A stretch of 64,000 nucleotides of DNA from a virus. Position numbers and translations under genes: made by a program. The DNA lies in IMG/VR virus record IMGVR_UViG_3300032053_011398; one strand, 5' to 3'. The notes beneath the pieces were generated by a model. It was not told the DNA's origin. It saw only the letters and a program-made list of their open reading frames with translations, and made no database searches. Shown here piece by piece: positions 2,470-59,690 of this stretch; the first letter of the stretch is position 1; the number at the start of each line of letters is the position of its first letter.

Positions 2470-3030
2470 ATGCCAGCACGGATTGAACGCAAGTCCGGCG
2501 ACCACAATGGGCGCTTAACCCTGGTCAAAGAGTCGGAACCCGACCGCTGGGGCGGTCGGCAGTTCCTTTTCAAATGCGATTGTGGCAGTGAAGTCGTTGC
2601 CCGGTGGGGGATTACGAGGAGCTGCGGGTGCCTCCAGCGAGAAACGACAATTCACATCACCAACTATAAAAAGCGTCTTGGTTGTGGCGAAGCCTGCTTG
2701 AACTTTGTTTACAACCGCTATCTCATGCGGGCACGGAACAAATGCCTTGAGTTCGTCATCAGCAAGGCCCAGTTTTTGGCACTGACTCAGCAGGCGTGCC
2801 ACTATTGCGGGTGTCCTCCCAGCAATATCGAGACAAAATACCACGATGCCTACGGCACGTTCACGTATAACGGTCTTGACCGGGTTGATCCCAAACGCGG
2901 CTACCTGCTGAGCAACGTGGTGCCGTGCTGCCGAATCTGCAACGTGGCTAAATCTATCATGACAAAAGAGGAGTTCATCGCTTGGATTGAACGTGTTCAT
3001 AATCATCAATATGCGTGCCTTAGTGTATAG
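2470..3030 (+). CDS. HNH homing endonuclease
   Basis: CDCG...SCGCL N-terminus, then CHYCG...YNGLDRVDPKRGY...NVVPCCRICNVAK. Start placed at ATG 2470 after the GGTTCT motif. Confidence 0.85.
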   Translation: MPARIERKSGDHNGRLTLVKESEPDRWGGRQFLFKCDCGSEVVARWGITRSCGCLQRETTIHITNYKKRLGCGEACLNFVYNRYLMRARNKCLEFVISKAQFLALTQQACHYCGCPPSNIETKYHDAYGTFTYNGLDRVDPKRGYLLSNVVPCCRICNVAKSIMTKEEFIAWIERVHNHQYACLSV

Positions 3031-4045
3031 CGATTTACAGGCGACGGACGGCCACGAACGCTGTTTTGCGGACCCTAGCCGATCTCTCCAACTCTGGAGA
3101 ATAGACCGGTTTTTCAAAGAACTGAAACGGATATACCGCGAGCAAAAATGTGACGCCCTCTTTGATCTCGGTGATACTACGGACGACAGAAGCGCAATTC
3201 CGGTGCCAGTTATTGACCTTTTATGCGATCACTTGAAGGAATTTAAAGGGGAATGGAATCTAAAATTAGTGGGCAACCATGAGCAATGGTTACGCTCGCC
3301 AAAAATCCACGCCGGGAAGATGTTCCGGGCCTTTTTCCACGTCGTGGACGGCTGCGAGGCCGTTCCGTGCGGAAACGTAAACATTTTGTGCATTAGCTAT
3401 CACGACGACGAACGCTCGATCACGGATTTCTTGCGGCTGAACCGGCCCAAAAGACCTGCGCTGCTCCTCGGCCACTTCCAGGTCGCCGGGTGCCAGATGC
3501 CTGCGGGCACGGCGGCAGGCGGTTTCTCCAGGGGAGCACTAGATTTTGTAAACATTGGCCTGCTTGGACATATCCATAAGCCGCAAGCCCTCGGCAAGCT
3601 TCATTACGTCGGCTCCCCCTTCCAGCAGGATTGGGGCGAGTCCGGGGAAGCCAAGCGCGTGGCCATTGTGGACATCCAGGGAGGCCGGATAGACGTGTCC
3701 TGGGTGCCCCTGGAGGGCTTCCCGGCCTATCGTCAAGTGTCGCTCGACGATTTCCTGGTCAGCGTCAAGGCGGACTCGGAGGATCGCTACAAGGTCGTCT
3801 TGAAGGACATCGCGGAGGCTGAGCGGTATTATGCCCATCCCCTGGCTAACCGCGCCGACGAGGCCATCTACGACTTCGAGATGACCGTCGCGGGGAACAA
3901 AGAAGGGGAAGTGGGCAACCAGCCGATCCCGCGTTCCAAGCAGGACATCATGCTCCGATACTTAAAGCAAAATCCGCCGCAGAACGTGGGAATCGTCCTG
4001 GAAGACGATGCCATGCTGGCCTACGGGGATCAGATTTCTAAATAA
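3011..4045 (+). CDS. Mre11/SbcD-like metallophosphoesterase nuclease (T4 gp47-like)
   Basis: Motifs SDLQ, LGD, GNHE, GH, LGHIH and YVGSPFQQDWGE. Confidence 0.85.
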   Translation: MRALVYSDLQATDGHERCFADPSRSLQLWRIDRFFKELKRIYREQKCDALFDLGDTTDDRSAIPVPVIDLLCDHLKEFKGEWNLKLVGNHEQWLRSPKIHAGKMFRAFFHVVDGCEAVPCGNVNILCISYHDDERSITDFLRLNRPKRPALLLGHFQVAGCQMPAGTAAGGFSRGALDFVNIGLLGHIHKPQALGKLHYVGSPFQQDWGESGEAKRVAIVDIQGGRIDVSWVPLEGFPAYRQVSLDDFLVSVKADSEDRYKVVLKDIAEAERYYAHPLANRADEAIYDFEMTVAGNKEGEVGNQPIPRSKQDIMLRYLKQNPPQNVGIVLEDDAMLAYGDQISK

Positions 4046-4119
4046 TCCGTTCTATTCGTTTGTGGTCAATGCGGGCACGGTCGGTGCGGATGCGTGGTGG
4101 TCAGTGCGGAGTCGGGCGC

Positions 4120-4365
4120 ATGAAAAAGCTATTACCACTCGTGCTGCTGGCGCTCACTGGGTGCGTGCCCCTGGGAAAGAGCACCCACCTGGTTCTCGGC
4201 CTCGGAGTGTTCCGCGTAAACAATACCAACCAGGTGACCGTGGTCAAAGCCAACACGCTGGGCGTTTACGCCGGGTCTGGCCGTGTAAACGTGGGCCTCT
4301 CCAGCGTTGTGGCGGCGAGCATCCCAACCAACAGCAGCACGATCCTGGAAATTAAAGGTAGGTAA
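4120..4365 (+). CDS. Putative lipoprotein
   Basis: MKKLLPLVLLALTG-C lipobox. Confidence 0.6.
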   Translation: MKKLLPLVLLALTGCVPLGKSTHLVLGLGVFRVNNTNQVTVVKANTLGVYAGSGRVNVGLSSVVAASIPTNSSTILEIKGR

Positions 4366-4370
4366 GTTGT

Positions 4371-4784
4371 ATGAGAAAGCTGCAAATTCTTTTCCTCGGC
4401 GCGGCTTTGGCACTCTGTGCCACGGGCTGCAAAAACCTGAACTCGGTCATCACCACGACCCAAACGGGCCTGGGCGTCAGCGTTTCGGAAAACCCATCCA
4501 CCCAGCTCTACGAGATACGCTTCGGGTATTTCAGGAGCGAGTTCGCTTTCGTCCCCGGCAATACCAACGACCCAGCCACGGTGCCCGACGTAATAATGGA
4601 GATTCGGATGGAGCACATCATCAAGGGTGGACTGGTTTACCAGCGCCTCGCAGTGGGCAAAAATGCCATTAGCCAGCCGGGGGCTTCTCTGATGTTCGCC
4701 AGGGACGCCAATGGCAACCTGAGCAGCAACGCAATTGATTTTATCACCCGCAAAGTGAACAACATCCCGGAAGCTCCGAAATGA
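4371..4784 (+). CDS. Putative lipoprotein
   Basis: MRKLQILFLGAALALCATG-C lipobox. Confidence 0.65.
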   Translation: MRKLQILFLGAALALCATGCKNLNSVITTTQTGLGVSVSENPSTQLYEIRFGYFRSEFAFVPGNTNDPATVPDVIMEIRMEHIIKGGLVYQRLAVGKNAISQPGASLMFARDANGNLSSNAIDFITRKVNNIPEAPK

Positions 4785-4936
4785 ACACACGAGTCTTCCG
4801 CATTGACATGGCGACGGTCACCGATCTGGCCAACAGCATCGTGGTCCTCTGCAACAAGCAGCTCACCGAGGGGTTCAATTTGGCTGCCTCCTTCGTCTGG
4901 CAGACCAATCTCGTGCTGATTTTCCAAAAGGTGTAA
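4781..4936 (+). CDS. Small hypothetical protein (51 aa)
   Basis: ATGA overlap with the preceding stop. Sequence MNTRVFRIDMATVTDLANSIVVLCNKQLTEGFNLAASFVWQTNLVLIFQKV. Below the ORF-track cutoff. Confidence 0.5.
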   Translation: MNTRVFRIDMATVTDLANSIVVLCNKQLTEGFNLAASFVWQTNLVLIFQKV

Positions 4937-5070
4937 ACAAATTCTATCCCATCGAAGCGCCTTAACTCTCAATAGTGTTAGGCATCTTAAAAAGTGCTCG
5001 CGTGGTTACTTGTGATTAAGGCACTCCAGGCCAAGCCGGGAGTGCAAAACGCAGCAAAAACACATAACCT

Positions 5071-10522: not shown

Positions 10523-11146
10523 TCAATCCGTGGCCAGTGCGCCGTAGATGAACTGCTGATCGACGAAAGCCAGCTCAGTATTCTCGATAATCATGGGGTT
10601 GACCCGGCCTTTATCCGGGAAAACCTCCTGGCCGGTGTAAAATGGATAGCCAACGTCCGCACCGACCTGGCGCACGCTGAAATGGAGGTTTTCCCTCTTG
10701 GCATCCTCGGCGGTATCCGGCAGAACGATAAGGCTTTCGCGGCGAACAGACGGCTCGATGAGCACAAAACGCCCCACGATCTTGAACGATTCCAACTCGA
10801 TCACGTCCCTGGTGAGCCTGGCGATGATGTCCTCGACGTGGAGGAAGCAATTCAGCACGCCCTTGATGTCGAAGGTGAGACTCTCGACTAAAGACGGTGG
10901 AAGCTGGAACAGCACAAGATCGCCAGCGATGTAAGTCTCTTTGGTGCTGTGTTTGCCATCCGGCCCATAACCCTCCATCGCGCCGACCGCGATCACTTCG
11001 CCGATCTCGTAGAGCTTCGCCCGATTGGGAAGAAGCTGGATCGCGCCCTTGAGCTTCGTTGCGTGTTGCTTGACCACCACTCTGCCCGCCATAACTCTCA
11101 TATTCATAGGCTTCGCACACCTTCTGCTTGTCCCCGCACTGACCAC
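10523..11146 (-). CDS. Co-chaperonin GroES-like protein with two tandem GroES domains
   Basis: Domain 1: MRVMAGRVVVKQ...GAIQLLP...GEVIAVG...GDLVLF. Domain 2: KIVGRFVLIEP...LIVLPDTA...VRQVG...GQEVF. Confidence 0.7.
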   Translation of the reverse strand: MVSAGTSRRCAKPMNMRVMAGRVVVKQHATKLKGAIQLLPNRAKLYEIGEVIAVGAMEGYGPDGKHSTKETYIAGDLVLFQLPPSLVESLTFDIKGVLNCFLHVEDIIARLTRDVIELESFKIVGRFVLIEPSVRRESLIVLPDTAEDAKRENLHFSVRQVGADVGYPFYTGQEVFPDKGRVNPMIIENTELAFVDQQFIYGALATD

Positions 11147-11171
11147 CTAAAAAGAACGCAGTTACTTTTGT

Positions 11172-12248
11172 TTACAATTTTGCTCCTGGATCGTGGGCCA
11201 GGCTGCCACGTGCGCCAGGGAAGTCTTTACCCAGGCGCATCATGGCTACGTCCTGCGGGAGTGGCGTTTGTCGTTCCGTCACGGCGTATAGGGCCGCTTC
11301 TACATCATCGTTAGCGTCATTGGTCAACCGGGCGGTGCCATCGGCACTTCGGCTGTGGGGCATCCGGGCAACCGTGACCGGCAGGAGCGCCCCAAGCCTG
11401 GCCCCGGTCTCGACGGCCAGGTCACTGGAATCGCTGTCGAACAGGATGCAGAACTCCTTGATGTGGCGGTATCGCTGGAACTTGGCAACCTGGGAGCGAC
11501 TGAGGCGATGGGTAAAAACGCAGACCGGTGCGATATGGGCCACATCCAGCTCGCGCAACTTGTGCCGGAGCGACAGCGCGTTAAGGATCGACTCCACGAC
11601 GATCACCCGGCTCACCTGGAGGTCAGTCAGGGCGTCTAGGTTGTAAACCCAATAGCTTGGCCCGTAGGGAACCTCTTTTTTGCCGGGAAACCGCTTGGTG
11701 CTCTCAAAGCCTTCGTCGTTGTAGGTGCGACCCTGGTAATACACGCATCGCATACCTTCGTAAACCGGGAAAATGCAGAACGGCTCCCATGGCCCCGTGC
11801 GCGTAAATCCAGCCCCGGCTTCCTCCAGGTCTTCGATGCTCAAGTGCTTGCGTTCGGCCATGTCCCGACAGAAACGCCAATAGCAGCTCTTGCGGTTATT
11901 GCTCAGCAGCTCAAACCCGGTCGGCAGTTCGATGTCCTGGACGGGCGTAACCGCCTTTCTCATGTCGCCTTCCATAAGCTGCTGCCCAAAGCCTTCAAAG
12001 CCATCGCTGCCCTCATCGTCGGCCCATTCCAAGCCTTTTAACTTGAACAGGGACTTGACGTGATGGGGCTGGGGGTCGTGGCAGCGCCAGCAATGTGTGT
12101 AGAGGGTCTTGACATTGATGCTCCGATTTCCTGTTTTGTCATCGCACCCGCTAACCGGACAGAGGATGTAGATTTCATCGTCCGTCGAACGGTTTTTGAT
12201 GACCTCGAAGGCATTGCCAATCTCGCGTTTGATCTTATCCGGCGACAT
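11172..12248 (-). CDS. DNA primase (Zn finger + TOPRIM)
   Basis: CPVSGC...HCWRC Zn finger, IFPVY...YYQGR, VIVVESILNAL and ILFDSD. Start placed at ATG 12248. Confidence 0.8.
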   Translation of the reverse strand: MSPDKIKREIGNAFEVIKNRSTDDEIYILCPVSGCDDKTGNRSINVKTLYTHCWRCHDPQPHHVKSLFKLKGLEWADDEGSDGFEGFGQQLMEGDMRKAVTPVQDIELPTGFELLSNNRKSCYWRFCRDMAERKHLSIEDLEEAGAGFTRTGPWEPFCIFPVYEGMRCVYYQGRTYNDEGFESTKRFPGKKEVPYGPSYWVYNLDALTDLQVSRVIVVESILNALSLRHKLRELDVAHIAPVCVFTHRLSRSQVAKFQRYRHIKEFCILFDSDSSDLAVETGARLGALLPVTVARMPHSRSADGTARLTNDANDDVEAALYAVTERQTPLPQDVAMMRLGKDFPGARGSLAHDPGAKL

Positions 12249-12270
12249 GCTGTAGTTAAGAACGAAGTTT

Positions 12271-12462
12271 ATGGAATTGAACCAAATGATCGACATTTCG
12301 AGAAAGTTCGAGCCGAACAAACAGCAGCAGGCCATCCAGCAGGACGGCCAGGCCAAAGCTGCCTTCGCCTTGAACTTGATCCAGCGGATGCCCCAAGAAC
12401 CTCCGAAGCCCGAAGAAGCGGTAAGAATTCCCTGTTTGGGGGTCTTAGCCATTCCGAGCTGA
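12271..12462 (+). CDS. Small hypothetical protein
   Basis: 63 aa filling the gap between the primase start and the sulfotransferase end. Preceded by GTAGTTA (12252-12258). Confidence 0.45.
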   Translation: MELNQMIDISRKFEPNKQQQAIQQDGQAKAAFALNLIQRMPQEPPKPEEAVRIPCLGVLAIPS

Positions 12463-13850: not shown

Positions 13851-14617
13851 TAGTAGTATAACCACTTTGGATAGCGAGACTGCGGTGCCGTCATTTTCCG
13901 GGCAGCCGTAATCAGGCACTCCTCGCGGATGATCTCCGGGAAGCTATTGGCTCTCAGGTGGTCGATCAAGTGGCGGTCGGTCTCGGTGAAATCAAGCGCG
14001 TAATTACAGCCTTTGACTTCTGTCACCTGGTAGCCGCTGGCTTCAGCCAGGTCTTTCAGCTCGCCGGGCGAGTATTCCCTGGCCAGGCGCGGCTCGCTGG
14101 AGATGATGTAGTTGCTGAAAAATCCGGGGTGGAACCCGTTCAGCACTTTCCAGACGGCCTTGATCGAGCAGGCGTTGGGCACGGACAGGATCAGGGTGCC
14201 GCCGACCTTCATGGTGCGGTTGATCTCATACATCATCCACATCGGGTCGCACTGCATGTAGGACAAGACCTCGCAGCAGAGCACGCAGTCGAACTGGGCA
14301 TCTTGGTAGGGAAAAGTGTCCTTCTCGGCATCGAAGAAGTCCATCCGGCTTTGGAACTCTTTACCCTCGCGGGACATGATGTTTGCGTTCCGCGTGCCTG
14401 TCCCCAAGTAGCAGGCATACACGTCCGGGTAGCCGCCGATGAACTTGCAAACCGGAGCCATCTGGAGATAGCTGCCCATGTCCAGCAGGGCCTTGCCGGG
14501 GCCTCCCTCCGGGACGCACTCCAGCGTCCTCAACAACCGGATACGATGAGACTGGACGTATGCCTCCGCGTCTTCGGTGACCGTCCAGTCAATTATCTGC
14601 GGCAGCGTAACCGTCAT
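13850..14617 (-). CDS. Class I SAM-dependent methyltransferase
   Basis: LLDMGS, FPYQDAQFDCVLCCEVL and GGTLILSVPN. Confidence 0.85.
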   Translation of the reverse strand: MTVTLPQIIDWTVTEDAEAYVQSHRIRLLRTLECVPEGGPGKALLDMGSYLQMAPVCKFIGGYPDVYACYLGTGTRNANIMSREGKEFQSRMDFFDAEKDTFPYQDAQFDCVLCCEVLSYMQCDPMWMMYEINRTMKVGGTLILSVPNACSIKAVWKVLNGFHPGFFSNYIISSEPRLAREYSPGELKDLAEASGYQVTEVKGCNYALDFTETDRHLIDHLRANSFPEIIREECLITAARKMTAPQSRYPKWLYY

Positions 14618-16902
14618 AGCTTTTGCAATTCATTCACGATTCCATCATCAAAGAACGCCATTCGGCAGCGGCAATCATTTTCGCCGAAGGTGACCAGCCA
14701 GCCGCGCGCGGCCCGGATTGCCCCGCAAGGGAAGATCACGGAGTGCTGGGAAGGCCGATTATACTGAATTTTCTCCTCCTCGCCCGCCAAGAGTGGCACT
14801 TTGGACATGTAAACCGGCTTGAAGGGAGGCTTGGGATCGAAGGCGTAAACGCCGATAAAGTATTGACGGATGGGGCCGTAGGACTCCTCACGGATGTTGA
14901 CGCTGGAGTGGAAAAACGACCAGAGCAGCCCGTCGTGCAGCACCGGCGAGGAGCCGCCGCGCAGGTCGCCCCGCGTCCAGTTGTGGTCGAAGCGGGTCTC
15001 ATATACGAACTTGGTCGTGTGGTCTTCCACGCTGACCTCAAGAACCTTGTGAGGCACAATGCCGTAGGTAGCGAACAGCCGACCTTCCGCCTCGAAGAAC
15101 GTCCAGTTTTTCTCCGGCCTGGTGTGATACCAGGGGCGCTCTAGGTAAAAACTCTCCGCCGTGGTCATGTCGTCGTTTAATCGGGCGATACCGACCTCAA
15201 GAGAGTCGGTGTAGGCCAACCACAAATTTTCTTTGTAAACAAAAAACCTTGGGTCTTCCACGCAGTAGTTGCCAAACTTGGAATGGAGATCGAACACTCT
15301 GGTCGTCTCCAGGATTGGGTTCCATTCCCGATCCAGTTCGTTGACGGCAACCATCGAGAGTCGGAACCAGGGGATACACTCGACGCGATAAGCCAGGAAC
15401 TTTTTACCCTTCCAGATGGCCAGGCTGGGATTGAACCACGCCTCAACCCGGCCCTTTCTGCCGAATGTCCACTGGATGGCGTTGCGCTTCATCGGCAAAG
15501 GCAGGGGAATGGCCTGAAGCATCCGGCTGTTGTCGAACAGGTGCGTGGAAGCCATGCCGATACTTCGGTGCAGGCCGCTGATCGTGGCCGGGACGCCATT
15601 GTGGGTGTAGAATTCCTCAAACTTAGTGGGCTGCTCGACGACGTTAATTTCCGGGGCCTGGTGCGTCAGTTTTCGGACGTGCCATTTCTCCTTCCGGCGC
15701 GGATTGAGCGGCAGGTGCCTCAGCTCAGGAATGTAAACAAATTTGTCCTGGCCGTAGATGGCGTTGGGCCGCTTGAACAAGCAATTGGCGAGCTGTGGAT
15801 AGGTTTCCTGGACGGTGTTCACCTTTAGCCCCTCGGCAATAGCGTAGGGACAGCTCTGGTTGCCGACGAACAAATGACAGCCCGCAATCAGCCGGGCCAG
15901 TTCCAGGAGGTTGGCCGTCTGCGCGTGCGGAATCAGGCCGAAGTCCGAAACAAACGAGGCATACTCCTCCGGCGTGCCGATGAATACCATGTCGCGCCGG
16001 AACCTGTTCACGATGTCGTGCCAGGGGAACTGCGGATTGCGCCAACGATGGCTTCGGTGGACGAGCACGCTGCGCTTGAGAATGATCGGGTCAACATCCA
16101 ACCAGGGCACCTGATCGTTGAAAAAGGTCTCGGCGCTCAGGCAGCAGGCGTCGAGGGATTGAGTGACCAGGTTCTTCCCTGGTGCCGCGAAGTTGCGGAA
16201 CAGGTTCAGGTCGTAGTTCACAACCGGCATCTTCTCCGTGAAGTAAACTGACCGGACATAGGGCTGGGCCAGCATCAGGGGCGCGATGTTCTTGACCACC
16301 TTGGGCGACATGACTTCGCGCAAGTCCGGTTTTGGGTTCATCTTGATCTCCGTGCCCAAGTAAAAGATGCCGTGGCCCATGACCTTCAAGGCAGGCATGG
16401 AATAGATGATGTCACCCAAGTTGCCGCTATGATAGAGCCGCCATCCCTTGGGGTCATGGTTGCCCTCCATACGCTCAACCAAGCCGACCGCACCGACCTG
16501 GTGGGTCTTCACCAGCGGTGAATCCAGGGCCTTGTAAGCGCGGCGGTAAAATGACGTGCTATAGACCGGCTCATGGAGGTCGTGGCGCAGTTCGATTTTC
16601 AGGTAAGTCGTGGTCAGCCGAGCGTGGATGCTGAGCACGTCCCTGTGATACCACCAGCCAAGCGTCCAAAGCACGCAAATCTGGCCCCTGGCTGCCCGCA
16701 CACCAGCAGCAATAGCGTTTTCACCGTTGATCGGCTTGACCTGAATGCCATCTCCGAGGTCTTTGTCCAAAAGGTTTACAAAAACCAGCTCTTTGTGCGG
16801 ATGGCTCTGCCGGTGAAAGCTCCCATGGATGGAACCTATTGACCCTACGGTCTTTTCGTCCACCACCACGATTGTCGAAATCAGGACTGGGACATCGTTC
16901 AT
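14614..16902 (-). CDS. Multidomain glyco-enzyme: GT2-like remnant + GT9-like glycosyltransferase + GH130-like beta-propeller
   Basis: HSGNLGDIIYSMP and NLLELARLIAGCHLFVGNQS (GT9-like). FNPSL, EDPR, EKNWTFF, LRGGS and VIFPCG (five-bladed propeller glycosidase/phosphorylase). Confidence 0.7.
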   Translation of the reverse strand: MNDVPVLISTIVVVDEKTVGSIGSIHGSFHRQSHPHKELVFVNLLDKDLGDGIQVKPINGENAIAAGVRAARGQICVLWTLGWWYHRDVLSIHARLTTTYLKIELRHDLHEPVYSTSFYRRAYKALDSPLVKTHQVGAVGLVERMEGNHDPKGWRLYHSGNLGDIIYSMPALKVMGHGIFYLGTEIKMNPKPDLREVMSPKVVKNIAPLMLAQPYVRSVYFTEKMPVVNYDLNLFRNFAAPGKNLVTQSLDACCLSAETFFNDQVPWLDVDPIILKRSVLVHRSHRWRNPQFPWHDIVNRFRRDMVFIGTPEEYASFVSDFGLIPHAQTANLLELARLIAGCHLFVGNQSCPYAIAEGLKVNTVQETYPQLANCLFKRPNAIYGQDKFVYIPELRHLPLNPRRKEKWHVRKLTHQAPEINVVEQPTKFEEFYTHNGVPATISGLHRSIGMASTHLFDNSRMLQAIPLPLPMKRNAIQWTFGRKGRVEAWFNPSLAIWKGKKFLAYRVECIPWFRLSMVAVNELDREWNPILETTRVFDLHSKFGNYCVEDPRFFVYKENLWLAYTDSLEVGIARLNDDMTTAESFYLERPWYHTRPEKNWTFFEAEGRLFATYGIVPHKVLEVSVEDHTTKFVYETRFDHNWTRGDLRGGSSPVLHDGLLWSFFHSSVNIREESYGPIRQYFIGVYAFDPKPPFKPVYMSKVPLLAGEEEKIQYNRPSQHSVIFPCGAIRAARGWLVTFGENDCRCRMAFFDDGIVNELQKL

Positions 16903-18629
16903 ACGCGGCGAATCTGCAACCCGGCCAAATAGCCAAGAACTTCGATTCTGATAGTAGAACCGGGAACAATATCCAGGCTGCTGAACAGAACGTAGTTGTC
17001 ATCCTGAATCCAGGAGGTTGCCCCCGTGGGGGTAGTCGTCGCGCTGAGGATGGTTCCGCCGTCCACCTGGACGTAGTAGTCGGAACCACTGCCACTGAAA
17101 GTCTGATTGCTGTAAAGGTAAAGCCCATAAATGCCGGGAGGCAGGCCGTGGAGCCGAAAGACGGTGGTATAGGGGACGCCGCCCATATCGAACCCGCCGA
17201 TCCAGGTCATCAGCATCCCGTTCCAGGTCGCTGTGACACCACTGTTATTCACCAAGGGAGCAACCCGTTCCAGCCAGATGCGCGTGTCCACCTGCTTGGC
17301 GTCCTTCAGGTAGATGTAAGACACCGAGGAGTAGGTGAAGCAGACTTCGGGTGTGCCGCCATAGCCGTAGGAGCAGTAGCAGTCCCGGTAATCCTTTGTG
17401 TAAAGCACCGGCACGTAGATGTTCCAGTAGTCGCTGGTGTCGCCGACCACCGCAGGCCCCCAGTAGCGGGTGACCGTGATCCCGTTCTCGGTGTCGAAAT
17501 TGTCGTTGAGCAGCACGGTGCTGCCGGTGAGGTCTTCGAGCACTACATCATCCAGCAGCGACCCAAAAGCTTGACCGGGATCGGTTTCCAAGGCGATTTT
17601 GCGGAACGAAATGGTGCCGGTGGAACCATCGCCAGTAAAATCGACGTAGTAGTCCTGGAAATCCTGCATCCAGTCGGTGATGTCCAGGTTGGCATCGACC
17701 AGTGCCCCGGCTTTGTAATTCAGAATTTCGTGGGCACGAGCAAGGCGCTGGTTGCCCGCCGCCCGCCAGCTTAACCGGAAGATGTGCCCGGTCGTGAAGG
17801 TAAAGGTCGTCTTGCTCTCCATACGGCCATACCAGCTCATCGAACCTCCGGCATTGCCGCTGCCCGCCATATCCACATAAAGGCCATTGCCGGGCCTGAA
17901 GTCATAAAATCCCCTGCCGATCAAATCGACGCTGCCGTTGTCCACCACGTTGAAGTTTATGAAAAACGAGTAGCTGAGCGCCCCCCGGCCTTCGAGCACG
18001 GTGCCATCACTGCCGTTGAAGTCAATGTCCGCCAGCACAGGCGGATGATAGCCAAAAATGTTTACAAAATAATGGACACCGTTGACGATGATCTGGCGGA
18101 TGACCGAAAGGAATGTCCGAGGGAGCCGGTCGGCAGCTTCTCGAATGAAGCCTGTGCGCCCAATCGCGTGGGTGCCGTCCTGGACCTGAAAATGGCGGCT
18201 GACCGAAGCTGGATCATGCGGCGTGCCCATCCATTTGATCTGGAAGAAAAGCTCGTCCGTCAGGAGGTTGCCGATCACGTCGCCGCGCACCACCGGCGTC
18301 GCCGTCTGAACCGTGCAGGAGGCCAGACCATGGACGGTCGTCCAGATTTCGTTGCCGTGGTCAATCGTGACCTCGTAGGTTGGCTGCGTTCCCAAGAGCG
18401 TATTGGGCGTGAATTTCCAGATCGAAAAAATCAAGCGAATCGAAATGACTTTGCCGTCCCCAGCAGCCAATACCTGCTCTCCCGGCTCGAAGCGGTAGCA
18501 GCACCCCAGGTTGGTTTCGCCCTCAACGGAGAAGTCCTCCAGGAGGAACAACTTCTTCCGGCTCGGCGGACGAAGTTTCTGGAGTGTCCACCGCGCTGGA
18601 AATTTCAATGGCGATAGGTCTGGAGTCAT
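16899..18629 (-). CDS. Virion protein with degenerate M23/LytM domain and carbohydrate-binding-like beta domains
   Basis: VLAAGDGKV...VTIDHG...VVRGDVIG...PHDP M23 scaffold without the zinc ligands. Confidence 0.6.
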   Translation of the reverse strand: MTPDLSPLKFPARWTLQKLRPPSRKKLFLLEDFSVEGETNLGCCYRFEPGEQVLAAGDGKVISIRLIFSIWKFTPNTLLGTQPTYEVTIDHGNEIWTTVHGLASCTVQTATPVVRGDVIGNLLTDELFFQIKWMGTPHDPASVSRHFQVQDGTHAIGRTGFIREAADRLPRTFLSVIRQIIVNGVHYFVNIFGYHPPVLADIDFNGSDGTVLEGRGALSYSFFINFNVVDNGSVDLIGRGFYDFRPGNGLYVDMAGSGNAGGSMSWYGRMESKTTFTFTTGHIFRLSWRAAGNQRLARAHEILNYKAGALVDANLDITDWMQDFQDYYVDFTGDGSTGTISFRKIALETDPGQAFGSLLDDVVLEDLTGSTVLLNDNFDTENGITVTRYWGPAVVGDTSDYWNIYVPVLYTKDYRDCYCSYGYGGTPEVCFTYSSVSYIYLKDAKQVDTRIWLERVAPLVNNSGVTATWNGMLMTWIGGFDMGGVPYTTVFRLHGLPPGIYGLYLYSNQTFSGSGSDYYVQVDGGTILSATTTPTGATSWIQDDNYVLFSSLDIVPGSTIRIEVLGYLAGLQIRRV

Positions 18630-20564: not shown

Positions 20565-20600
20565 ATTTTGTAAACAAACCTTTCTCGTTCTTCTCGCTGT

Positions 20601-28192: not shown

Positions 28193-28260
28193 ACACGTTC
28201 ATTCTTTCTCTTTATCTACACTTCGTCATTTCCTGGTTTTGGGGTCGAATTTGTAAACAA

Positions 28261-31000: not shown

Positions 31001-31047
31001 AAAATAGATACGGCCACTCGCGGCCAGCCGATAGCAGTGGAAAACGA

Positions 31048-31076: not shown

Positions 31077-31083
31077 GCGGATC

Positions 31084-32905: not shown

Positions 32906-32920
32906 AGCTTAAATACCGGC

Positions 32921-33625: not shown

Positions 33626-33632
33626 CTTGGAT

Positions 33633-33932: not shown

Positions 33933-33940
33933 ACAATTTT

Positions 33941-35769: not shown

Positions 35770-38430
35770 TTATTCAGCTCCGCTTGGAACGGGCATGGGA
35801 CGTTTGCCCGGTCGAAATTCTTCTTCACCCGCAAGTTTGTCCTCCTCGCCGCCTTCACCTGGCTCCAGCTCGCCTTCTTCGGGAATCTCCGGGGCCTCGC
35901 CGCCCTCAGCAGCTTCATCAGCTACCAGGTCAGCCAATAGGTCGCGGATTTCGCGCAAAAGGCTGACAGCCACGTTGTCCTGGGTGGACGCGCCAACCGC
36001 ACTGTCCGATACCGGTGGTTCCATCGGCATGTCGGCCCCGGATGGCGAGGGCATATCGCCCACATCACCCGCAGAGTCCAGCCCGCCCAGCTCGTCGCCC
36101 ATCTCGTCGCCCATCTCGACTACGAGCTTATAGGCGTTCTTTACGACTTTGATCTCTTGTAACGTCAGCAGCGTTTTCATGTTCGTCATACTATCTACTC
36201 CTTCAGTCTTGAGGAACCTGCGACCGAGAAATTGGCCCGGCGTAAGTCCTTTGATCTCGCCTGGAGCAGCCGCTTTCTTGGCAGGTTTCTCGGCAGCCTT
36301 GGCAGGCTTGATTGGGATTTTCTTTACTGGGGCAGCCGGAGGCAATTCGCGCCTGCGCTGTCCTGGCGGCGGCGGCGCGGGGGCCGGAGCCTTGGGGCCT
36401 TTGGGAGCTTGCGGGGCTTTCGGGGCGGCGGGCGCTTTGCCGTATTTGGCTTTGAGTTCCTGGGGCGAAGGCGGTGGTCTTATCCACGGTTCCATCGGTA
36501 TTCCAGTGAGTTCCGGGGGCATGACTGCGGCCAGTTTGCTGGCCAGCCGATTCTGGCGCTGAGGCGGCAACCCGATATTGCGGCGGGCTTTCGCAGCAGC
36601 AATCTTGGCGTCGCGCTCGCGGGCTGCGGCCATCTCCGCATCGAAATTGATCCAGCGTTTGGTAGCATGTTTGGTGAGCCTATCCAGGCGATCCGAAGGC
36701 CCCATGTCCTCCGGGAAACCGGACAGCAGGCCATAAATGAAATCCCGCGTGGCTAGAATATGTTTACAAAGTCCAGGTATGCCCTGCGGGTTGGTCTTTC
36801 TGGGGGCGCGGCTGATGCACTGGTTGAGTGAATTCTTGCCGATGGGGCCAGCCTTCTTCTGGTGGTTGGCCCAAGCCCAGCGGTAACGATAGTCCGGGCA
36901 GTTATGAACGGCAACGCCATGAACGATGAACGACTCGTCCTCCTCTACGGCCAAGTCGTAAACTTCACCAGTGTATTCGACTTTCTCTCGCTTGAGCAGG
37001 GTTTTCAACTGGCCTTCGTCGCGGACGTAATCGGCACAGTGAAAAACGCCGGAACCAGGTGAAAACTTGTCCTTTTCTCGGAGATGCGGCCAGAGCCATT
37101 TTCTAACTTCATCCGCTGAACCTCCTCCCGGCACTACAACTTGATAACTGCGCTGCTTGCTTGCTTTTGCCTCTGTGTGAATTGAAACAGAGTGTCTTAC
37201 CCCCAGGCGGCTCAGTATGCAGCTCATTTGGCTAGCCAGCGCAAAACTCGTAGAGATGTATTTCATTCCCCGGCTTGGATAAATCCAACCGTCGCCCAAC
37301 ATAGCACCGATAAAAACCTCTTTTAGCGCCGCGTTGTCAAACCCCATGATTTCCGGTGAAAATCGTTTTGAGTTCGATCCCCGGCCAACGTGCGCCAGGC
37401 ACTCGTCGCGTAGCTTGCGGCTGCGAATGATTACGGACAACCATTTTTGCTTTTTGTAGCTCCGATTTTTGATCTCTGCCGGGTAACCAAGCTTGGCACA
37501 CAATCCCAAAATATCAGCAGCAATAGTTTCTTTTTCGTTGGTATTGAGTGTAAGAAAAACGCAGGCGCTTCGCGCTGGAACATGACCCTCGGCGGCGTAA
37601 TAACCAAGGAGTCGGGCAAAAGCCAGGTCCACGCTGATTTTGCCCTCTTCTAACCAAGGCAGCAGGAACCACTCCTGCGGCCTGAAATCATCTACTTTAA
37701 TCCACTCGAAGTGCCCAGGATCATTTTCCAGGACTGTGCCTTTGGCCCAGTGCCCTTGCCGATATTTCTTGGACAAAATTAAGTTGGGGCTAAAGAGCCG
37801 ATTTGCGGTTTTAAACCCACCAGCACCATCCTCGAACAAAGATTGGCCGCACCCGCACAAACACTTTTCATTGCCGCGCAAAACATAAAACGGATGGTTG
37901 CCTGTAGCGATCAACTCGCCTAGAAATCCAACAACCTTAATTTTGTAAACATTCTCATCTTGTTTGACCAACCGTGGAACATTTCCAAGCACGCGCCTAA
38001 TTCTGCCCCGGTGCGTATAAACGGAATCACCCTTCTTGATTTCACGGATGGGTTTATAGGTGCCATCACCCAGCATAACCAAGGTTTCAGGCGCAAAGCA
38101 CATACAGTCAACTTCTACCGGAAGCTGGGAGAGCGGCGTATTTTTGCCCTTGTGCCCGCGTTTGGGCTTGAGGAATCGAACAAAGCCCCGGTGTCGCAGG
38201 CCGGTGGTCGAATGGCCGGGCGCGGACTTGGCATTAAAATAATAGGAAAAAACCCAGTGGTTGGCTGTCTGATACGCCTCGACTTCCATCGGAGGAATGC
38301 GGACGTAATGCGACCGAACGAACCGCTTCGGCTCGGACATCCGGTAAAGCTGGTCGTAGGTCAGGTATTCCTGGATCATTTCCAAGCTCTCGGCCACTTC
38401 CAGCAGTTTTTTGAATCGCATTCCGCGCAT
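35770..38430 (-). CDS. SWIM-type zinc-finger protein interrupted by an intein
   Basis: Spliced extein reads VDCM|CPDYRYRWAW...TNPQGIPGLCKHI (CxC...CxH). Pro/Lys-rich linker and acidic C-terminus. Confidence 0.75.
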   Translation of the reverse strand: MRGMRFKKLLEVAESLEMIQEYLTYDQLYRMSEPKRFVRSHYVRIPPMEVEAYQTANHWVFSYYFNAKSAPGHSTTGLRHRGFVRFLKPKRGHKGKNTPLSQLPVEVDCMCFAPETLVMLGDGTYKPIREIKKGDSVYTHRGRIRRVLGNVPRLVKQDENVYKIKVVGFLGELIATGNHPFYVLRGNEKCLCGCGQSLFEDGAGGFKTANRLFSPNLILSKKYRQGHWAKGTVLENDPGHFEWIKVDDFRPQEWFLLPWLEEGKISVDLAFARLLGYYAAEGHVPARSACVFLTLNTNEKETIAADILGLCAKLGYPAEIKNRSYKKQKWLSVIIRSRKLRDECLAHVGRGSNSKRFSPEIMGFDNAALKEVFIGAMLGDGWIYPSRGMKYISTSFALASQMSCILSRLGVRHSVSIHTEAKASKQRSYQVVVPGGGSADEVRKWLWPHLREKDKFSPGSGVFHCADYVRDEGQLKTLLKREKVEYTGEVYDLAVEEDESFIVHGVAVHNCPDYRYRWAWANHQKKAGPIGKNSLNQCISRAPRKTNPQGIPGLCKHILATRDFIYGLLSGFPEDMGPSDRLDRLTKHATKRWINFDAEMAAARERDAKIAAAKARRNIGLPPQRQNRLASKLAAVMPPELTGIPMEPWIRPPPSPQELKAKYGKAPAAPKAPQAPKGPKAPAPAPPPPGQRRRELPPAAPVKKIPIKPAKAAEKPAKKAAAPGEIKGLTPGQFLGRRFLKTEGVDSMTNMKTLLTLQEIKVVKNAYKLVVEMGDEMGDELGGLDSAGDVGDMPSPSGADMPMEPPVSDSAVGASTQDNVAVSLLREIRDLLADLVADEAAEGGEAPEIPEEGELEPGEGGEEDKLAGEEEFRPGKRPMPVPSGAE
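36901..38100 (-). mobile_element. Intein with LAGLIDADG homing endonuclease (400 aa)
   Basis: Starts CFAPETLV. Block B TGNHPF, LLGYYAAEG and FIGAMLGDG. Ends VYDLAVEEDESFIVHGVAVHN followed by Cys+1. Confidence 0.95.
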
Positions 38431-39012: not shown

Positions 39013-40962
39013 ATGACCGACCTTCGGATCAAGCGGATACGGATGCGGAACTGGACGACCGTGCAATCGGCGGACATCAGCTTTCCCGACAAGGGCTTAG
39101 TTTTGGTCATCGGCTCGAATCTGGCCTCGGACGGCAAATTCCAAAGCGTCGGCTCCGGCAAGACGTGCCTGGGCGAAGCCCTAAGCCGCACACTCACCGG
39201 CGTCGCCGGGCGCTTCACTGAACTGGGCCATTATGCCGGGGACACTGCCAGCGTGCCGAATATGCTGGTCAAAGTTGACGCCGAATTGCTCGGAAAGCCC
39301 TTGACCGTGGAGATGGGCTTCAAATGCCCGGAGCTGTCCAAGACCGGCGAGGGCCTGCGGTTCATCTACGACGGCAAAACTACCCAACGGGGGCACGTTG
39401 ACCAAACCCGCGAGGAACTGTCCAAAACGATCCGGGTCACGCCAGAACTCGCGGAATGGACAGTCTTTCTTGATGGCGACAAACTCAAGTTCAACCGGAT
39501 GTCCCAGCAGAACTCCGTGAACCTGCTGATGACGGCCTTGGCCCAGCCGCCCTGGACGGAATACTTCGGTCGGGCGACCAAGGCGCTTCAGACTGGCCAA
39601 AGGCAGGTCGCCGTGGCCAACCAGGCGCTCCAAAGCGCCAAACTGCGCCGGGAGGGCCTGGAAGAAGACCTAGCCGATGCCAAGCAGGATCACGCCGACG
39701 CGGCAAAGGAATACCAGCGCCAGGTCGAGGAACTGGAAGACCGGATCAAGGAGTTGAAGCGCCAAAATGTAAACGACCGCAACTCCGTGATTGCTGCCGA
39801 GGAAGCTATCGGCAAGCTCAGGAAGAAGATCAAGTTGCTGGAGGAGCAAAACGCCGCTGCCGCGCACCAGCTCGACATCCAGCGCCAGGAACTCCGCGAC
39901 AAGTTGGCCGTGCTCGACGTGGCATGGCAGCGAGCCGTGGAAACCCGGTCCTCCCGCGATGCCTATGAGCAGCAAGTGCAGGAACGGCTGCACGAGATGC
40001 AGAAGATACCTAAGACCTGCCCGACTTGTGGCAAACCCTGGGATAAAGCCCTCAGCGAGATCGAGATGAAAAAGGCCGAGGCCGCGCTCAATCAGGCGAC
40101 CCTAGACTACCAGGCATCCGACAGGGCTTATCTCGCCATCAAAACCAAACGCGATGGCGTCAAGACTTCGATAAAAGAAATCGAGGAGCAGATGGACGCC
40201 GAGACCCACCTGGACGACGCCAGAGAATTGGGAGAACAGGTCACCGGCAACGAGCGCGTGATCCGCAACGTGGGCGCTTGCATCCAGGCCCGCGAGGTCA
40301 AAATCGCGTCCCTGGGCAACGGCATTGACGCCAGTTTTGTAAACAAAAAATCTGCTGTGGTGCAAGAACGCCAGCGGGCGCTGGAGGCTGAGCAGAAAGC
40401 CATCGAGATGGCAGCCGCCGATCTGGCTGGGGAGGAGGAAGTTTTCAAGGTGCTCGCATACTGGCATCGTGCTTTCGGGCCGACTGGCATCCCTAACATG
40501 GTCTTGGCCGACGCTATCGCTCCCTTGAACCGCGTGGCCCAGCGCATCTCGAACATGATGACCGGAGGCACGCTCCAAGTCAGTTACTCGACCAAGCGCG
40601 AACTGGCCAGCGGCGACAATAAAGCCCAGCTCATTATCAAGGTCGAAAACCGAATCGGCAGCAAGCGCCTGGAAGGAAGCTCCAAGGGCGAGGCGGGCCT
40701 GACCAACCTCATCATCGCCGAGAACCTGTCAGAGATCGGTCAAGTCTCCAGCCGGGTGGGCTTTCGCTGGTATGACGAAATCACCAGCGGCCAGGATGCG
40801 GTCGTGCGCCGGAGCATCTTCTCTTACTTGAGGGAAGTGAGCCATCGTCTGGGCATTCTGATCTTCGTCGTCGATCACCACGTCGAAGCGGCCAGCTACG
40901 CGGATTTCGTGCTGATCGCTGAAAAGATCAAAGGCGAAGGCACGCGCTTTTTCTGGCGCTAA
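39013..40962 (+). CDS. Rad50/SbcC-like ATPase (T4 gp46-like)
   Basis: Walker A GSGKT, coiled coil with CPTC zinc hook, signature SSKGE, Walker B WYDE and H-loop VVDH. Confidence 0.9.
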   Translation: MTDLRIKRIRMRNWTTVQSADISFPDKGLVLVIGSNLASDGKFQSVGSGKTCLGEALSRTLTGVAGRFTELGHYAGDTASVPNMLVKVDAELLGKPLTVEMGFKCPELSKTGEGLRFIYDGKTTQRGHVDQTREELSKTIRVTPELAEWTVFLDGDKLKFNRMSQQNSVNLLMTALAQPPWTEYFGRATKALQTGQRQVAVANQALQSAKLRREGLEEDLADAKQDHADAAKEYQRQVEELEDRIKELKRQNVNDRNSVIAAEEAIGKLRKKIKLLEEQNAAAAHQLDIQRQELRDKLAVLDVAWQRAVETRSSRDAYEQQVQERLHEMQKIPKTCPTCGKPWDKALSEIEMKKAEAALNQATLDYQASDRAYLAIKTKRDGVKTSIKEIEEQMDAETHLDDARELGEQVTGNERVIRNVGACIQAREVKIASLGNGIDASFVNKKSAVVQERQRALEAEQKAIEMAAADLAGEEEVFKVLAYWHRAFGPTGIPNMVLADAIAPLNRVAQRISNMMTGGTLQVSYSTKRELASGDNKAQLIIKVENRIGSKRLEGSSKGEAGLTNLIIAENLSEIGQVSSRVGFRWYDEITSGQDAVVRRSIFSYLREVSHRLGILIFVVDHHVEAASYADFVLIAEKIKGEGTRFFWR

Positions 40963-45462: not shown

Positions 45463-45588
45463 ATATCGTTCAGTTTAAGCTAGTTACATCATAATATCTA
45501 CGCGCACAAACTGTCCTGGCGCACTCTGCCAATATAACTACCCCCTGCTGGGCACGAAAGAAGTGTAAACAAAAGTGCATCAACCCTC

Positions 45589-54130: not shown

Positions 54131-55042
54131 CTACGCGGGCACATCGACGAAGGCATAGTGGCCAAGACTATCCACCGGGATGCCCATGCCGCTGTGGCCC
54201 CCGGCATACTTGGGCAGGCGCAGGAAGAAGGGCCGGTAGATCGGCTCCTGACCGTAACGCTTGCTGATATAGGACATGACTTCGTAGGATTCCCGATCCA
54301 GAAGCTTGCGTTCCGGCCCGCTTACGCTGCTCGCAACATCTTGGTGCCGCAGATGGGGATGCTCCAGATCGAGACAATTCTGCATTTGGCCATCCAGGTT
54401 GATCCCGCCAGCAAATCGCGCCCGGATCGTGTAATCACAGTGCTCCTCACCAAATTTTCCAAACCTAGCGTCGAAATAACCGATCTTGTCGAACACGGCG
54501 CGGGTCATCGACATCATCATGCCAGTCATCCGGGGCAACAATTTGACCATGTAGCCCCGCGAGTTGACGGTCATCCAGCGGTAGGTTTCCGGCAGGCCGG
54601 ATGCTGCCGGAGTTGCCACGGTGAAATCGCAGAAGCAGAACATGCCCACGCCCAGGTCTTCATGGCCGTGAGCGTAAAAGTTTACAAAATCTCCCAGGAC
54701 GTGGAGATCATCGTTCATGAGGCAAAGATGGTCATACTGCCCTTCTCCGAAAAGCTTCAGTATTCGATTACTATTGCCAGCCACACCCAGGTTAGTGCTG
54801 CCCAAGAAGACTCGGATGTTTGACCCTAAGTGTTTTCCATCCCACTCCTCGGCCAAAAGGTCTATCCGCGACGCCAACAACTTTGGAGTTGGACCCTTCA
54901 AAAATGTTTCCGTTCCGTCCCTTTGCCCATTATCCTCAACAATATGAATATCATAAGCCGAGCAGTGCTTTAACAGCCCAGAAAGCGTCTCTTTGAGCGC
55001 GTCAATGCGGTTGAAAGTCAGAATCGAAACAAGCGATTTCAT
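54131..55042 (-). CDS. Glycosyltransferase family 2
   Basis: SILTFNR, IVEDNG, NLGVAGNSN, LMNDD and IGYFDARFGKFGEEHCDYTIR. Confidence 0.85.
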   Translation of the reverse strand: MKSLVSILTFNRIDALKETLSGLLKHCSAYDIHIVEDNGQRDGTETFLKGPTPKLLASRIDLLAEEWDGKHLGSNIRVFLGSTNLGVAGNSNRILKLFGEGQYDHLCLMNDDLHVLGDFVNFYAHGHEDLGVGMFCFCDFTVATPAASGLPETYRWMTVNSRGYMVKLLPRMTGMMMSMTRAVFDKIGYFDARFGKFGEEHCDYTIRARFAGGINLDGQMQNCLDLEHPHLRHQDVASSVSGPERKLLDRESYEVMSYISKRYGQEPIYRPFFLRLPKYAGGHSGMGIPVDSLGHYAFVDVPA

Positions 55043-55422
55043 GCAGTGGGTGCAGCCTGCACAACCGAGGCAACGACGGCGGGGGCGACGGGAGTGGGGT
55101 CAGGGCTGCTGAAGAACCGCTTGAAGTTGTTCTGGATGGCGGATTTGAGTTCCTTGCCAACCTTGAAGCGGATGCCAGGGCGTGATGGGATGCGGACATC
55201 GCCCGCTTCGGGACGCTTTGGATTCCGCCCGACACGTTCCTTAGACATGCGGACTTCCCAAATGCCAAAGCCGCGAAATTCCACGCGACGGCCTGATGAT
55301 AGGGTGCTCTCGATTTGTTTGAGGAAAGCCTCAACGACGGTTTCAACGACCGCCTGCGACTGTTTGGTCGTGGCGGAGACAGCTTTGACGGCTCCGATTT
55401 TGGTTAATGTTTGATTGTTCAT
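55039..55422 (-). CDS. HU/IHF-like DNA-binding protein
   Basis: VEFRGFGIWEVR...RVGRNPK...IPSRPGIRFKVGKELK. Start ATG 55422. Confidence 0.9.
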   Translation of the reverse strand: MNNQTLTKIGAVKAVSATTKQSQAVVETVVEAFLKQIESTLSSGRRVEFRGFGIWEVRMSKERVGRNPKRPEAGDVRIPSRPGIRFKVGKELKSAIQNNFKRFFSSPDPTPVAPAVVASVVQAAPTA

Positions 55423-58327: not shown

Positions 58328-59130
58328 CAGGACTTGAACTTCAACGGGTCGCAGGTATCCTGGTAATCCCGAACCAACTCATCGAGTTTTTTCTGCCGGT
58401 CTTCCGCATTTGGAAAGCGTTCGTAGTGTTCACTCATGTTGAGGGCGCTCAACAGGAGAGAGTATATAGACGATTGAACGCTGTAGTGTGGATATTTCGC
58501 TGGATCAAAGTCAGGCGGCAGCTTGAGCGGTTGCTTTTCGGGCGGTAACTCACTCTCCGGCAAGGTCGATTCCTCAATCGACTTGGGAGCTGTTTCCACC
58601 GGCGATACCGGCGTTACAGCCTTGACAGGTTTGGGCGGACCAGCAACCACCTTGACCTTCTTGACCAAAACGACTGCTGGCGGCGTAAGAGGAAGATGGG
58701 GTTCCTCCCTCTTAGCCACTGGTTTTTCGGGCGGTGGAGGCGGCGGAGTTTCGACAACTTCCGGCGCAGATTTGACCTTCTTGCGCTTCGGCTCAGCCGA
58801 TGGGGCCGAAGGAGGGTGATTGGGCGCGGACATCGCTCCCCCAGGGCGGTCGCCAAGACGCATCATGACACGAGCGGCCATTCGCAGCACGTCGTTGAGC
58901 GGAACCTTGTGGGCATCTTTGCCCTCGTTATGCAAAGCTTCGGTGATTTCGACCGCTTCCTTGCTGAAAAAGACTTTTTCTCCGAAGCGCGTCTCGATGG
59001 GATATGTTTTGGGGCCAAGCCTGCCGCAGATGGCAGGCTGGCTTTCCAGAATTCCCTGCACCCGCTCATACCGCATCGAAGTCGGCAGCTTGTTCTGCGG
59101 CTTCGTTTCGTTGGTCATCGTAGTATTCAT
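58327..59130 (-). CDS. Hypothetical protein with Pro/Lys-rich linker
   Basis: 267-aa ORF coupled to the sigma gene. Confidence 0.6.
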   Translation of the reverse strand: MNTTMTNETKPQNKLPTSMRYERVQGILESQPAICGRLGPKTYPIETRFGEKVFFSKEAVEITEALHNEGKDAHKVPLNDVLRMAARVMMRLGDRPGGAMSAPNHPPSAPSAEPKRKKVKSAPEVVETPPPPPPEKPVAKREEPHLPLTPPAVVLVKKVKVVAGPPKPVKAVTPVSPVETAPKSIEESTLPESELPPEKQPLKLPPDFDPAKYPHYSVQSSIYSLLLSALNMSEHYERFPNAEDRQKKLDELVRDYQDTCDPLKFKS

Positions 59131-59192
59131 ACGTCGCTGATTACCGATCTAGCGGGCCACTGATTTTTGTCCACACTTTTAAGTGAAAAAAG

Positions 59193-59690
59193 TTAAGCCC
59201 TCGGTTTCTGGTTCTCCGCGAACTGTTTAGCTGAGGTCTTCAATGCCTCCCGCATGTCCAAAAGGCACTCATTGTAGGCCCCAAAGTGGGCAACCGTGGC
59301 TGGAAACTCCTGAATCGTGGGTTTCCGTTTCTTCAGGACGATTTTGCCCTCCTTGTTCTTTTCCACGTTTATGGTCATGAGGGCGCGGTGTATGGCCGCG
59401 TTCTTTTTGATCTCATCCGCGTGCGTCCAAAAATAGTGGTCGCCCAGGATCAGGTAGGAGACTTCCGTCAACAGTTGAAGGACGGGTGAGAGCTTCACGC
59501 AACGGATGGCATCGGCTTCGCCGCCTGGCGGCGGAACATGCTCGCCTTCGTCGTTGGTGCGCGTCACCACCACGGAGCTGATTTTGATTTCCTGTTCACG
59601 GAGCGGATTGAACTCCACGAATCTAGTATTGTTTACAATCGCGTCCACATCTTCGGCGAACTTCTTATTGACTTCGTATTCGGTGTTCAT
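59193..59690 (-). CDS. Phage metallopeptidase-like protein (degenerate)
   Basis: YLILGDHYFW...KNAAIHRALMTI...PTIQEFPATVAHFGAY resembles the phage putative metallopeptidase family but lacks HExxH. Confidence 0.5.
   Translation of the reverse strand: MNTEYEVNKKFAEDVDAIVNNTRFVEFNPLREQEIKISSVVVTRTNDEGEHVPPPGGEADAIRCVKLSPVLQLLTEVSYLILGDHYFWTHADEIKKNAAIHRALMTINVEKNKEGKIVLKKRKPTIQEFPATVAHFGAYNECLLDMREALKTSAKQFAENQKPRA

Follow-up and report, generated by a model that had tools for sequence, protein, structure and literature searches.

To our knowledge, it is only in temperate mycobacteriophages that operator-like words scattered over a genome have been studied well. The stoperators of the Cluster A mycobacteriophages, which are read by an L5 gp71-type repressor, are 13-mers present in tens of copies genome-wide, in promoters, at gene ends and in short intergenic spaces; they are asymmetric, are bound by a monomer and work in one orientation, which follows transcription (PMC9283540). 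Short words are also read in phage T4, whose late promoter (gp55) is the strict 8-mer TATAAATA at -13 to -6, co-oriented with the late genes, and whose middle promoter is a Mot box, (a/t)(a/t)(a/t)TGCTTtA, followed after 11 to 13 bp by a -10 element (PMC1524935). Here we describe a dispersed octamer, TGTAAACA (the box), in the virus record IMGVR_UViG_3300032053_011398 of IMG/VR; the window is the whole stretch of 64,000 nucleotides analysed. It belongs to a jumbo myovirus genome of about 242 kb; the phage looks like a lytic relative of T4, the annotated genes being of T4 type: portal, tail sheath, gp5/gp27-like hub, gp23-like capsid and gp21-like protease, together with an SbcCD-like nuclease, a primase, UvsX and a gp32-like protein. 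A close relative was not found among GenBank phages, nor did we find papers in the literature that tie these octamers to phages. IMG/VR, however, holds a clade of relatives, of which G001 (238 kb), G002 (211 kb), G003, G004, G005, G137, G138 and G011 were used for comparison; the contigs of G003 and G004 are incomplete. With moderate confidence, we read the box as the putative docking site of a dimeric, two-fold symmetric DNA-binding protein of the phage.

The initial annotation had listed 18 exact copies of the box and put the expectation at about one. Every coordinate and strand was correct, and the expectation was borne out: dinucleotide shuffles of the window gave 0.77 copies (maximum of the shuffles, 3) and an order-3 Markov model gave 1.13, which makes the box the most over-represented octamer of the window. 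It ranks first among octamers in G001 (51 copies versus 4.7 expected) and G004 (25 versus 0.5) as well. The five near-matches that had been named are real, and each deviates at one outer base only: TGTAAACC at 16773, CGTAAACA at 32196 and 52363, TGTAAACT at 54679 and AGTAAACA at 62636. Positions 2 to 7 of the box (GTAAAC) are strict, position 1 accepts C too, and position 8 is looser and mostly A. A different and far denser repeat was seen in G003 (L054-L060), where the octamers GGCTACAC and CCGGTGTA reach up to 149 copies in 129 kb, with about 10 expected.

The excess persisted when the coding sequence was taken into account. Synonymous-codon shuffles within the window genes gave 1.2 intragenic boxes versus 10 observed; in four genomes the observed and expected numbers were 10 and 1.2, 27 and 3.4, 96 and 19, and 32 and 5, and ratios similar to that of the window were obtained in G001, G004, G002 and G005. 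A stricter null was provided by a Markov-chain shuffle that preserves the proteins, the codon usage and all forbidden words, since avoidance of restriction sites is extreme in the window phage. GTAC is absent from the window, about 35 palindromic hexamers have no copy where 10 to 57 are expected, and altogether 83 hexamers are missing although at least 8 copies of each are expected, including the non-palindromic GTAGAC (AccI-type GTMKAC). Such extreme avoidance is also found in G001, G137 and G011, with relatives avoiding different sets, and it points to unmodified phage DNA that is pressed by many host restriction systems.

This avoidance touches the box directly. GTAC, GTAGAC, GTATAC and GTCGAC each have zero copies in the window and in G001, GTGCAC is likewise missing from the window, and 5 of the 10 GTNNAC hexamer classes are missing in the window phage. 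Because GTAGAC, GTATAC, GTCGAC and GTGCAC are missing, Val-Tyr can hardly be written in the window other than as GTT TAC. The box might thus have no function at all and be a by-product of restriction avoidance and codon constraints that funnel GTNNAC words to GTAAAC. Indeed, the avoidance-preserving null doubled the expectation from 1.2 to 2.6, because Val-Tyr is nearly forced to GTT TAC, and it predicted 34 of the 53 intragenic GTAAAC hexamers. However, 12 intragenic boxes were observed versus 2.6 ± 1.6 expected (null maximum, 6), and the outer T and A are left unexplained by this account. Moreover, relatives without such avoidance are equally enriched, with centres that are GTMKAC sites, and intergenic boxes are conserved amid diverged surroundings. 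Restriction avoidance lifts the background yet leaves the box excess unexplained, and the conservation described below (59% versus 9.6%), together with 12 versus 2.6, brings the functionless reading close to refutation; we regard it as highly improbable.

The octamer of the window represents one version of a box, TGTA-N-ACA, that is shared across the clade; the initial annotation had missed this box, which is present in all examined related IMG/VR jumbo-phage contigs of at least 100 kb. The centre is only or nearly only A in the window, G001, G137, G138, G011 and G004, is A (41), T (40), G (34) or C (7) in G002, is G (38) in G005 and is G (23) or T (8) in G003. In the window only N = A is used because the GTAC and GTMKAC words have been purged, which excludes the other three centres, and genomes that permit GTAC/GTMKAC words use the centres G and T, with the exception of G004.

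Since the centre preferences vary among phage lineages with probably different hosts, a host factor could be the reader, either as a recruited host transcription factor or as a host recombination nuclease with a Chi-like signal. T4-like cyanophages carry host NtcA sites, which is a precedent for such recruitment. In 126 Verrucomicrobiota genomes, a phylum that may not be that of the host, no enrichment was found: the word never came to more than one copy per 16 kb, the highest count being 159 in 2.5 Mb, and compared with the reversed control it was for the most part about as frequent (ratio near 1) and nowhere more than about 2.5 times as frequent. This makes a Chi- or uptake-type tag of the host genome unlikely, with the reservation that the true host of the phage may be another. 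The boxes also lack strand polarity, as described below. In addition, the outer bases TGTA..ACA are constant across phages whose sheath proteins are merely 36 to 44% identical, and this fits a conserved phage reader better. We therefore consider reading by a host factor unlikely.

The initial annotation had suggested that selection acts on the DNA word, and conservation in relatives supports this alongside the codon-aware excess. In alignments of the window, G137, G138, G011 and G001, the exact octamer was kept in 51 of 87 phylogenetically non-independent site pairs (59%), whereas neighbouring octamers of the same alignments were exact in 9.6%. The box at 28252, upstream of the tail sheath gene, is found at an identical position and in an identical orientation in L001/G011 and L002/G001, amid a spacer that has otherwise diverged. 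Within genes, the conserved peptide GLCKHIL is written with the AT-rich codons CTT TGT AAA CAT only in the box-bearing lineages; in G002 to G005, where this box is missing, different codons are used for it, mostly TGC AAG CAC. At larger evolutionary distances box positions are never kept, which indicates that the sites turn over. A second stretch of the sheath spacer is near-identical in three phages while other spacer parts have diverged: the leader of about 40 nt at 28193-28230(-) (GTAGATA.AGAGAAAG..AACGTGT ATG), which might act in the control of translation or at the RNA level.

The orientation of the box relative to the genes was random: in six genomes its sense and antisense numbers were those expected by chance, with in-frame TAA allowed for, and one conserved site, the box at 20569, has the flipped centre TT instead of AA in G001 (TGTTTACA). 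Strand polarity was also discarded, as the two strands are used about equally and local runs in G001 and G005 are of opposite sense relative to the genes; boxes thus lack the polarity of Chi and KOPS. Regular phasing was ruled out by a Poisson-like spacing over whole contigs (coefficient of variation about 1), and the boxes are solitary. The A/T flanks mentioned in the initial annotation were confirmed and read, in the window clade, roughly T-n-G-A-A-W-T (box) A-W-T-T-C-n-A. The left flank profile correlates with the reverse complement of the right one with r = 0.93 in register and at most 0.58 when shifted, although the box itself has a non-palindromic centre, AA, and the window makes no use of the perfect palindrome TGTATACA. 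A hairpin or cruciform was ruled out, since single sites have no surplus self-complementarity (3.12 pairs per site versus 3.16 predicted by the flank profile). Dyad-symmetric flanks without such a surplus argue for a two-fold symmetric reader rather than a hairpin.

With the stoperators, to which the initial annotation had likened it, the box shares tens of copies of a short phage-specific word, spread genome-wide and found at promoters and gene ends. However, it has 8 bp instead of 13, its flanks are symmetric, its orientation is random and can be flipped, and most copies are intragenic (12 of 18 in the window, 96 of 115 in G002) instead of lying in promoters and short intergenic spaces. The asymmetry and the transcription-following orientation that define stoperators (PMC9283540) are lacking, and the box is therefore not a stoperator in the strict sense. 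The second analogy that had been drawn, to matS, fares similarly. Like the boxes, the sites of MatP (matS), SlmA and Noc, as well as parS, are present in tens of copies per replicon irrespective of genes; they are dyad symmetric and read by dimers, whereas the box has a symmetric flank profile around a non-palindromic centre and a putative dimeric reader. They are 12- to 16-bp palindromes confined to or excluded from chromosome regions; the boxes are Poisson spread without confinement to a macrodomain. What stands of the proposed dispersed protein-binding site is thus a word that behaves like a site and has dyad-symmetric flanks; a genome-wide tag of the host, in the 126 sampled genomes, does not.

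We then looked for elements at a fixed distance from the boxes. The information content out to ±60 nt revealed no second element for the boxes overall. A subset, however, is coupled to the pentamer GTTCT: box-N10/11-GTTCT occurs nine times in six genomes versus about one expected, with the box in either orientation and, in G005, with the centre variant used there (TGTCTACA). GTTCT itself, preceded by A-T-T-(T/C)-N, lies 6 to 10 nt before starts in 53 cases in the window and G001 (for example, at 1197-1201, 20587-20591 and 11153-11157(-)) and is a second promoter-like class; the divergent spacer between the portal gene and the gene at 1211 has one GTTCT per strand, conserved clade-wide. At these sites, about 10% of the boxes, the arrangement resembles the T4 middle promoter, with an A/T-flanked 8- to 9-bp box as a substitute for the -35 element 10 to 11 bp upstream of a downstream element. 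The Mot box, in contrast, has a single orientation, is read by the monomeric MotA and occurs in promoters only, whereas about 90% of the boxes have no downstream partner.

The T4 late promoter offers another comparison, and with it another explanation: the box could be a one-element promoter for a phage sigma factor, the counterpart of TATAAATA, that fires both ways, including antisense. Both are strict pseudo-palindromic octamers in tens of copies in a T4-type genome, and they agree at 6 of 8 positions (T-R-T-A-A-A-Y-A). The phage has the T4-type core genes, two sigma-like open reading frames (ORFs) are conserved across the clade, the core of the box is very strict, and some boxes lie 5 to 47 nt before co-oriented starts. 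However, a co-oriented start follows within 40 nt for only 2 of the 18 boxes, the box at the sheath gene is antisense to it, and none lies near the genes for the major capsid protein, the protease and the portal. Random orientation in all six genomes and the flip of the conserved upstream site also speak against a promoter, as does the lack of a downstream element at fixed distance, and dyad-symmetric flanks are not expected from a sigma factor that reads one strand. The place of a late promoter is, in fact, taken by a different motif, GTAG[AT]TA, which lies 3 to 8 nt before co-oriented start codons in 6 of 14 copies in the window and 11 of 34 in G001 (for example, 28212-28218(-) before the sheath gene, and at the portal start near 1150) and looks like the late promoter of near-leaderless mRNAs. 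We thus judge it improbable that the boxes are sigma factor promoters.

Inspection of the 18 sites gives a picture of their context. Twelve are intragenic and six are at gene boundaries, and three of the latter provide the stop codon (TAA) of the upstream gene: the box at 4932-4939(+) that of the ORF 4781-4936(+), kept in G137 and G011; the box at 11169-11176(-) that of the primase-like gene 11172-12452(-); and the box at 33928-33935(+) that of 33627-33932(+), with 5 nt between this box and the GTG start of 33941-35281(+). The box at 11169 is followed by 11 nt, GTTCT (11153-11157), 6 nt and a GTG start at 11146, a start that is overlapped by a CRISPR-handle-like 12-mer, TGGTCAGTGCGG, with exact copies at 11134-11145(-) and 4098-4109(+). 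The box at 20569-20576(+) is intergenic, 4 nt past the gp5-like gene and at the same place in G011 and, flipped, in G001; after a further 10 nt comes GTTCT (20587-20591), which is separated by 9 nt from the ATG (20601) of the baseplate hub gene. Antisense to both of its neighbours, the intergenic box at 28252-28259(+) follows the stop codon of 28261-29430(-) at a distance of 1 nt and precedes the start of the tail sheath gene (28192) by 59 nt. The box at 45564-45571(+), located between divergent genes, has a TTGACA hexamer about 20 nt downstream and, at about 70 nt, the ATG of a plus-strand ORF.

Among the intragenic boxes, 9 of 12 have the frame xxT GTA AAC A or xxT GTT TAC A (F/I-V-N or F/N/H-V-Y), in agreement with the FVN and FVY contexts that had been claimed. 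Sense boxes are found at 3547-3554(+) in the SbcD-like gene 2987-4045(+), exact in G001, G137 and G011 and lost in G138; at 18059-18066(-) in the M23-like virion gene 16899-18629(-), kept in G011 and lost in G001; at 40338-40345(+) in the SbcC-like gene 39013-40962(+), kept in G138 and lost in G001; and at 59630-59637(-) in the metallopeptidase-like gene 59193-59690(-). The gene 35770-38430(-), which encodes 886 amino acids and an intein with a LAGLIDADG endonuclease domain, has a sense box at 36761-36768(-), the one that encodes GLCKHIL and is kept in G001 and G138, and an antisense box in its intein part at 37944-37951(+). Two antisense boxes lie in the tail-operon gene 14614-16902(-), at 15234-15241(+) (FFVYK) and 15732-15739(+) (KFVYI); both are kept in G001 and are replaced in G011 by TGTAAACG and CGTAAACA, respectively. 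The antisense box at 34317-34324(-) in 33941-35281(+) is not kept in relatives.

The remaining three are in genes for HNH endonucleases: at 2706-2713(-), antisense within 2416-3030(+) (codons TTT GTT TAC AAC) and not kept in G001; at 31252-31259(-) within 30856-31644(+); and at 33322-33329(-) within 32822-33625(+). The latter two, previously taken to be intergenic, are inside paralogs that the gene caller had overlooked. The window has four such paralogous HNH (endonuclease VII-like) homing-endonuclease genes, the fourth being 24778-25350(-), all of low GC content (0.44 to 0.52), and G001 has five. Since a box is present in 6 of 10 HNH paralogs across genomes, we considered the target of a phage DNA enzyme, be it a site-specific nickase such as an HNH paralog or a base-modifying enzyme, that would set marks at intervals along the phage DNA, to be used in clamp loading, in recombination-dependent replication or in self-recognition. 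Strict and short recognition, random orientation, independence of gene context and Poisson spread do resemble enzyme sites. However, the boxes lie at differing places in these AT-rich genes, where they fit V-Y-N codons, so that the link between the HNH genes and the box is weak, and the HNH endonucleases were rejected as readers or as the source of the sites. Furthermore, we know of no reason why enzyme targets should be over-represented 5- to 20-fold, no candidate enzyme is tied to the box, and the fixed coupling to GTTCT at 10 to 11 bp is left unexplained. An enzyme target is therefore quite unlikely.

The initial annotation had proposed two binders, a ribbon-helix-helix (RHH) protein at 1211 and an HU protein at 55039. 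Both genes are present. The latter (55039-55422(-)) encodes an HU/IHF-family protein (PF00216, E value of 8e-22) with homologs in G001, G002 and G003, and is an alternative candidate, as is, further, the sigma-like protein with a Mor-like tail. The former (1211-1423(+)) encodes 70 amino acids, and its AlphaFold2 (AF2) model (predicted local distance difference test score [pLDDT], 80.6) has an RHH fold, with an extended N-terminal segment, to which no strand was assigned, followed by two helices. The top 50 fold matches are almost all RHH proteins (DinJ, ORF56, NikR, omega, CopA, RelB, PutA, Arc, ParG and MetJ), the best Z score being 4.4, which is low, as expected of a 45-residue domain. When the RHH and the Mor-like sigma-like protein were searched against solved structures and Pfam, nothing significant was obtained. 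The family of the RHH protein comprises 62 clusters, several on contigs of 100 to 250 kb, without a Pfam domain or functional name, and its gene, a conserved core gene, and the portal gene are divergently oriented in the window as well as in three further contigs examined. R14 is invariant, and S12 (nearly) and F13 are invariant or nearly so. By the usual strand alternation of RHH proteins, S12 and R14 would face the DNA, and the two Arg14 side chains at the ends of the antiparallel ribbon could reach two guanines 5 bp apart. The strand residues fall into three sequence types that follow three clades, but since GTMKAC avoidance mostly explains the centre base, covariation between the two is uninformative.

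The 8-bp met box of MetJ (PDB 1cma) and the heptads of omega (PDB 2bnw) resemble the box in being (pseudo)symmetric units of 7 to 8 bp; RHH dimers read them within one major groove, and here an RHH protein is encoded by the phage. As in an RHH operator, we found an 8-bp pseudo-dyad with symmetric flanks and an RHH-like fold encoded nearby. MetJ and omega boxes act as tandem arrays at few operators, in contrast to the single boxes scattered over the window phage genome. The RHH protein is the leading and most plausible, though unproven, candidate binder.

Several observations weigh against a dimeric phage protein, and the RHH protein in particular, as the reader. Known RHH proteins usually bind tightly only where boxes are in tandem, and those described here stand alone with Poisson spacing. 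Many RHH repressors autoregulate, but the upstream region of the RHH gene itself is free of boxes in 12 genomes. An RHH homolog was not found in the incomplete contigs of G003 and G004. The G002 flanks are uninformative and 96 of its 115 boxes fall within genes, which means that most sites cannot be accounted for by a regulatory role. G004 uses only N = A though GTAGAC is permitted there; avoidance hence does not account for all centre preferences. Finally, the 87 site pairs behind the conservation figure are not phylogenetically independent.

From these data, we infer that a protein binds the box, which protein this might be and what its binding would do. In the model that we favor, TGTAAACA is the form of the clade-wide 8-bp TGTA-N-ACA box that is permitted to the window phage, its centre base being dictated by the host, in that the phage lineage has purged GTAC and GTMKAC and is left with only N = A. 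The box would be the core of a dyad-symmetric site of about 24 bp for a phage-encoded, homodimeric, sequence-specific double-stranded-DNA-binding protein, which would bind in both orientations at about one site per 2 to 5 kb. If the protein is of the RHH type, the dimer would insert a two-stranded beta-ribbon into one major groove and read about 8 bp with two-fold symmetry. At about one-tenth of the sites, the box, 10 to 11 bp upstream of the GTTCT promoter-like element, would be centred near -27, the place of the T4 Mot box, and the bound dimer would turn the promoter on or off, so that a minority of sites would have a regulatory role. The remaining, mainly intragenic boxes would be additional places for the protein to dock, serving an architectural or roadblock function. 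A bolder version, which we consider doubtful, is that the boxes are a genome-wide self-mark of the jumbo-phage clade, read by the portal-adjacent RHH protein, that would serve to organise, condense or feed the DNA into replication and packaging instead of regulating genes, with host restriction continually rewriting the sequence of the mark, so that its centre base would follow the GTNNAC words purged by each lineage.

These findings extend the phenomenon of dispersed operator-like words from the temperate mycobacteriophages to an uncultured clade of T4-related jumbo phages, where it has different properties: the box is orientation free and mostly intragenic, it is conserved at 36 to 44% sheath identity, and its centre is shaped by restriction avoidance. 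The box is a sequence marker by which this phage clade can be spotted in metagenomes, and it is an example of host restriction constraining a virus's own regulatory vocabulary.

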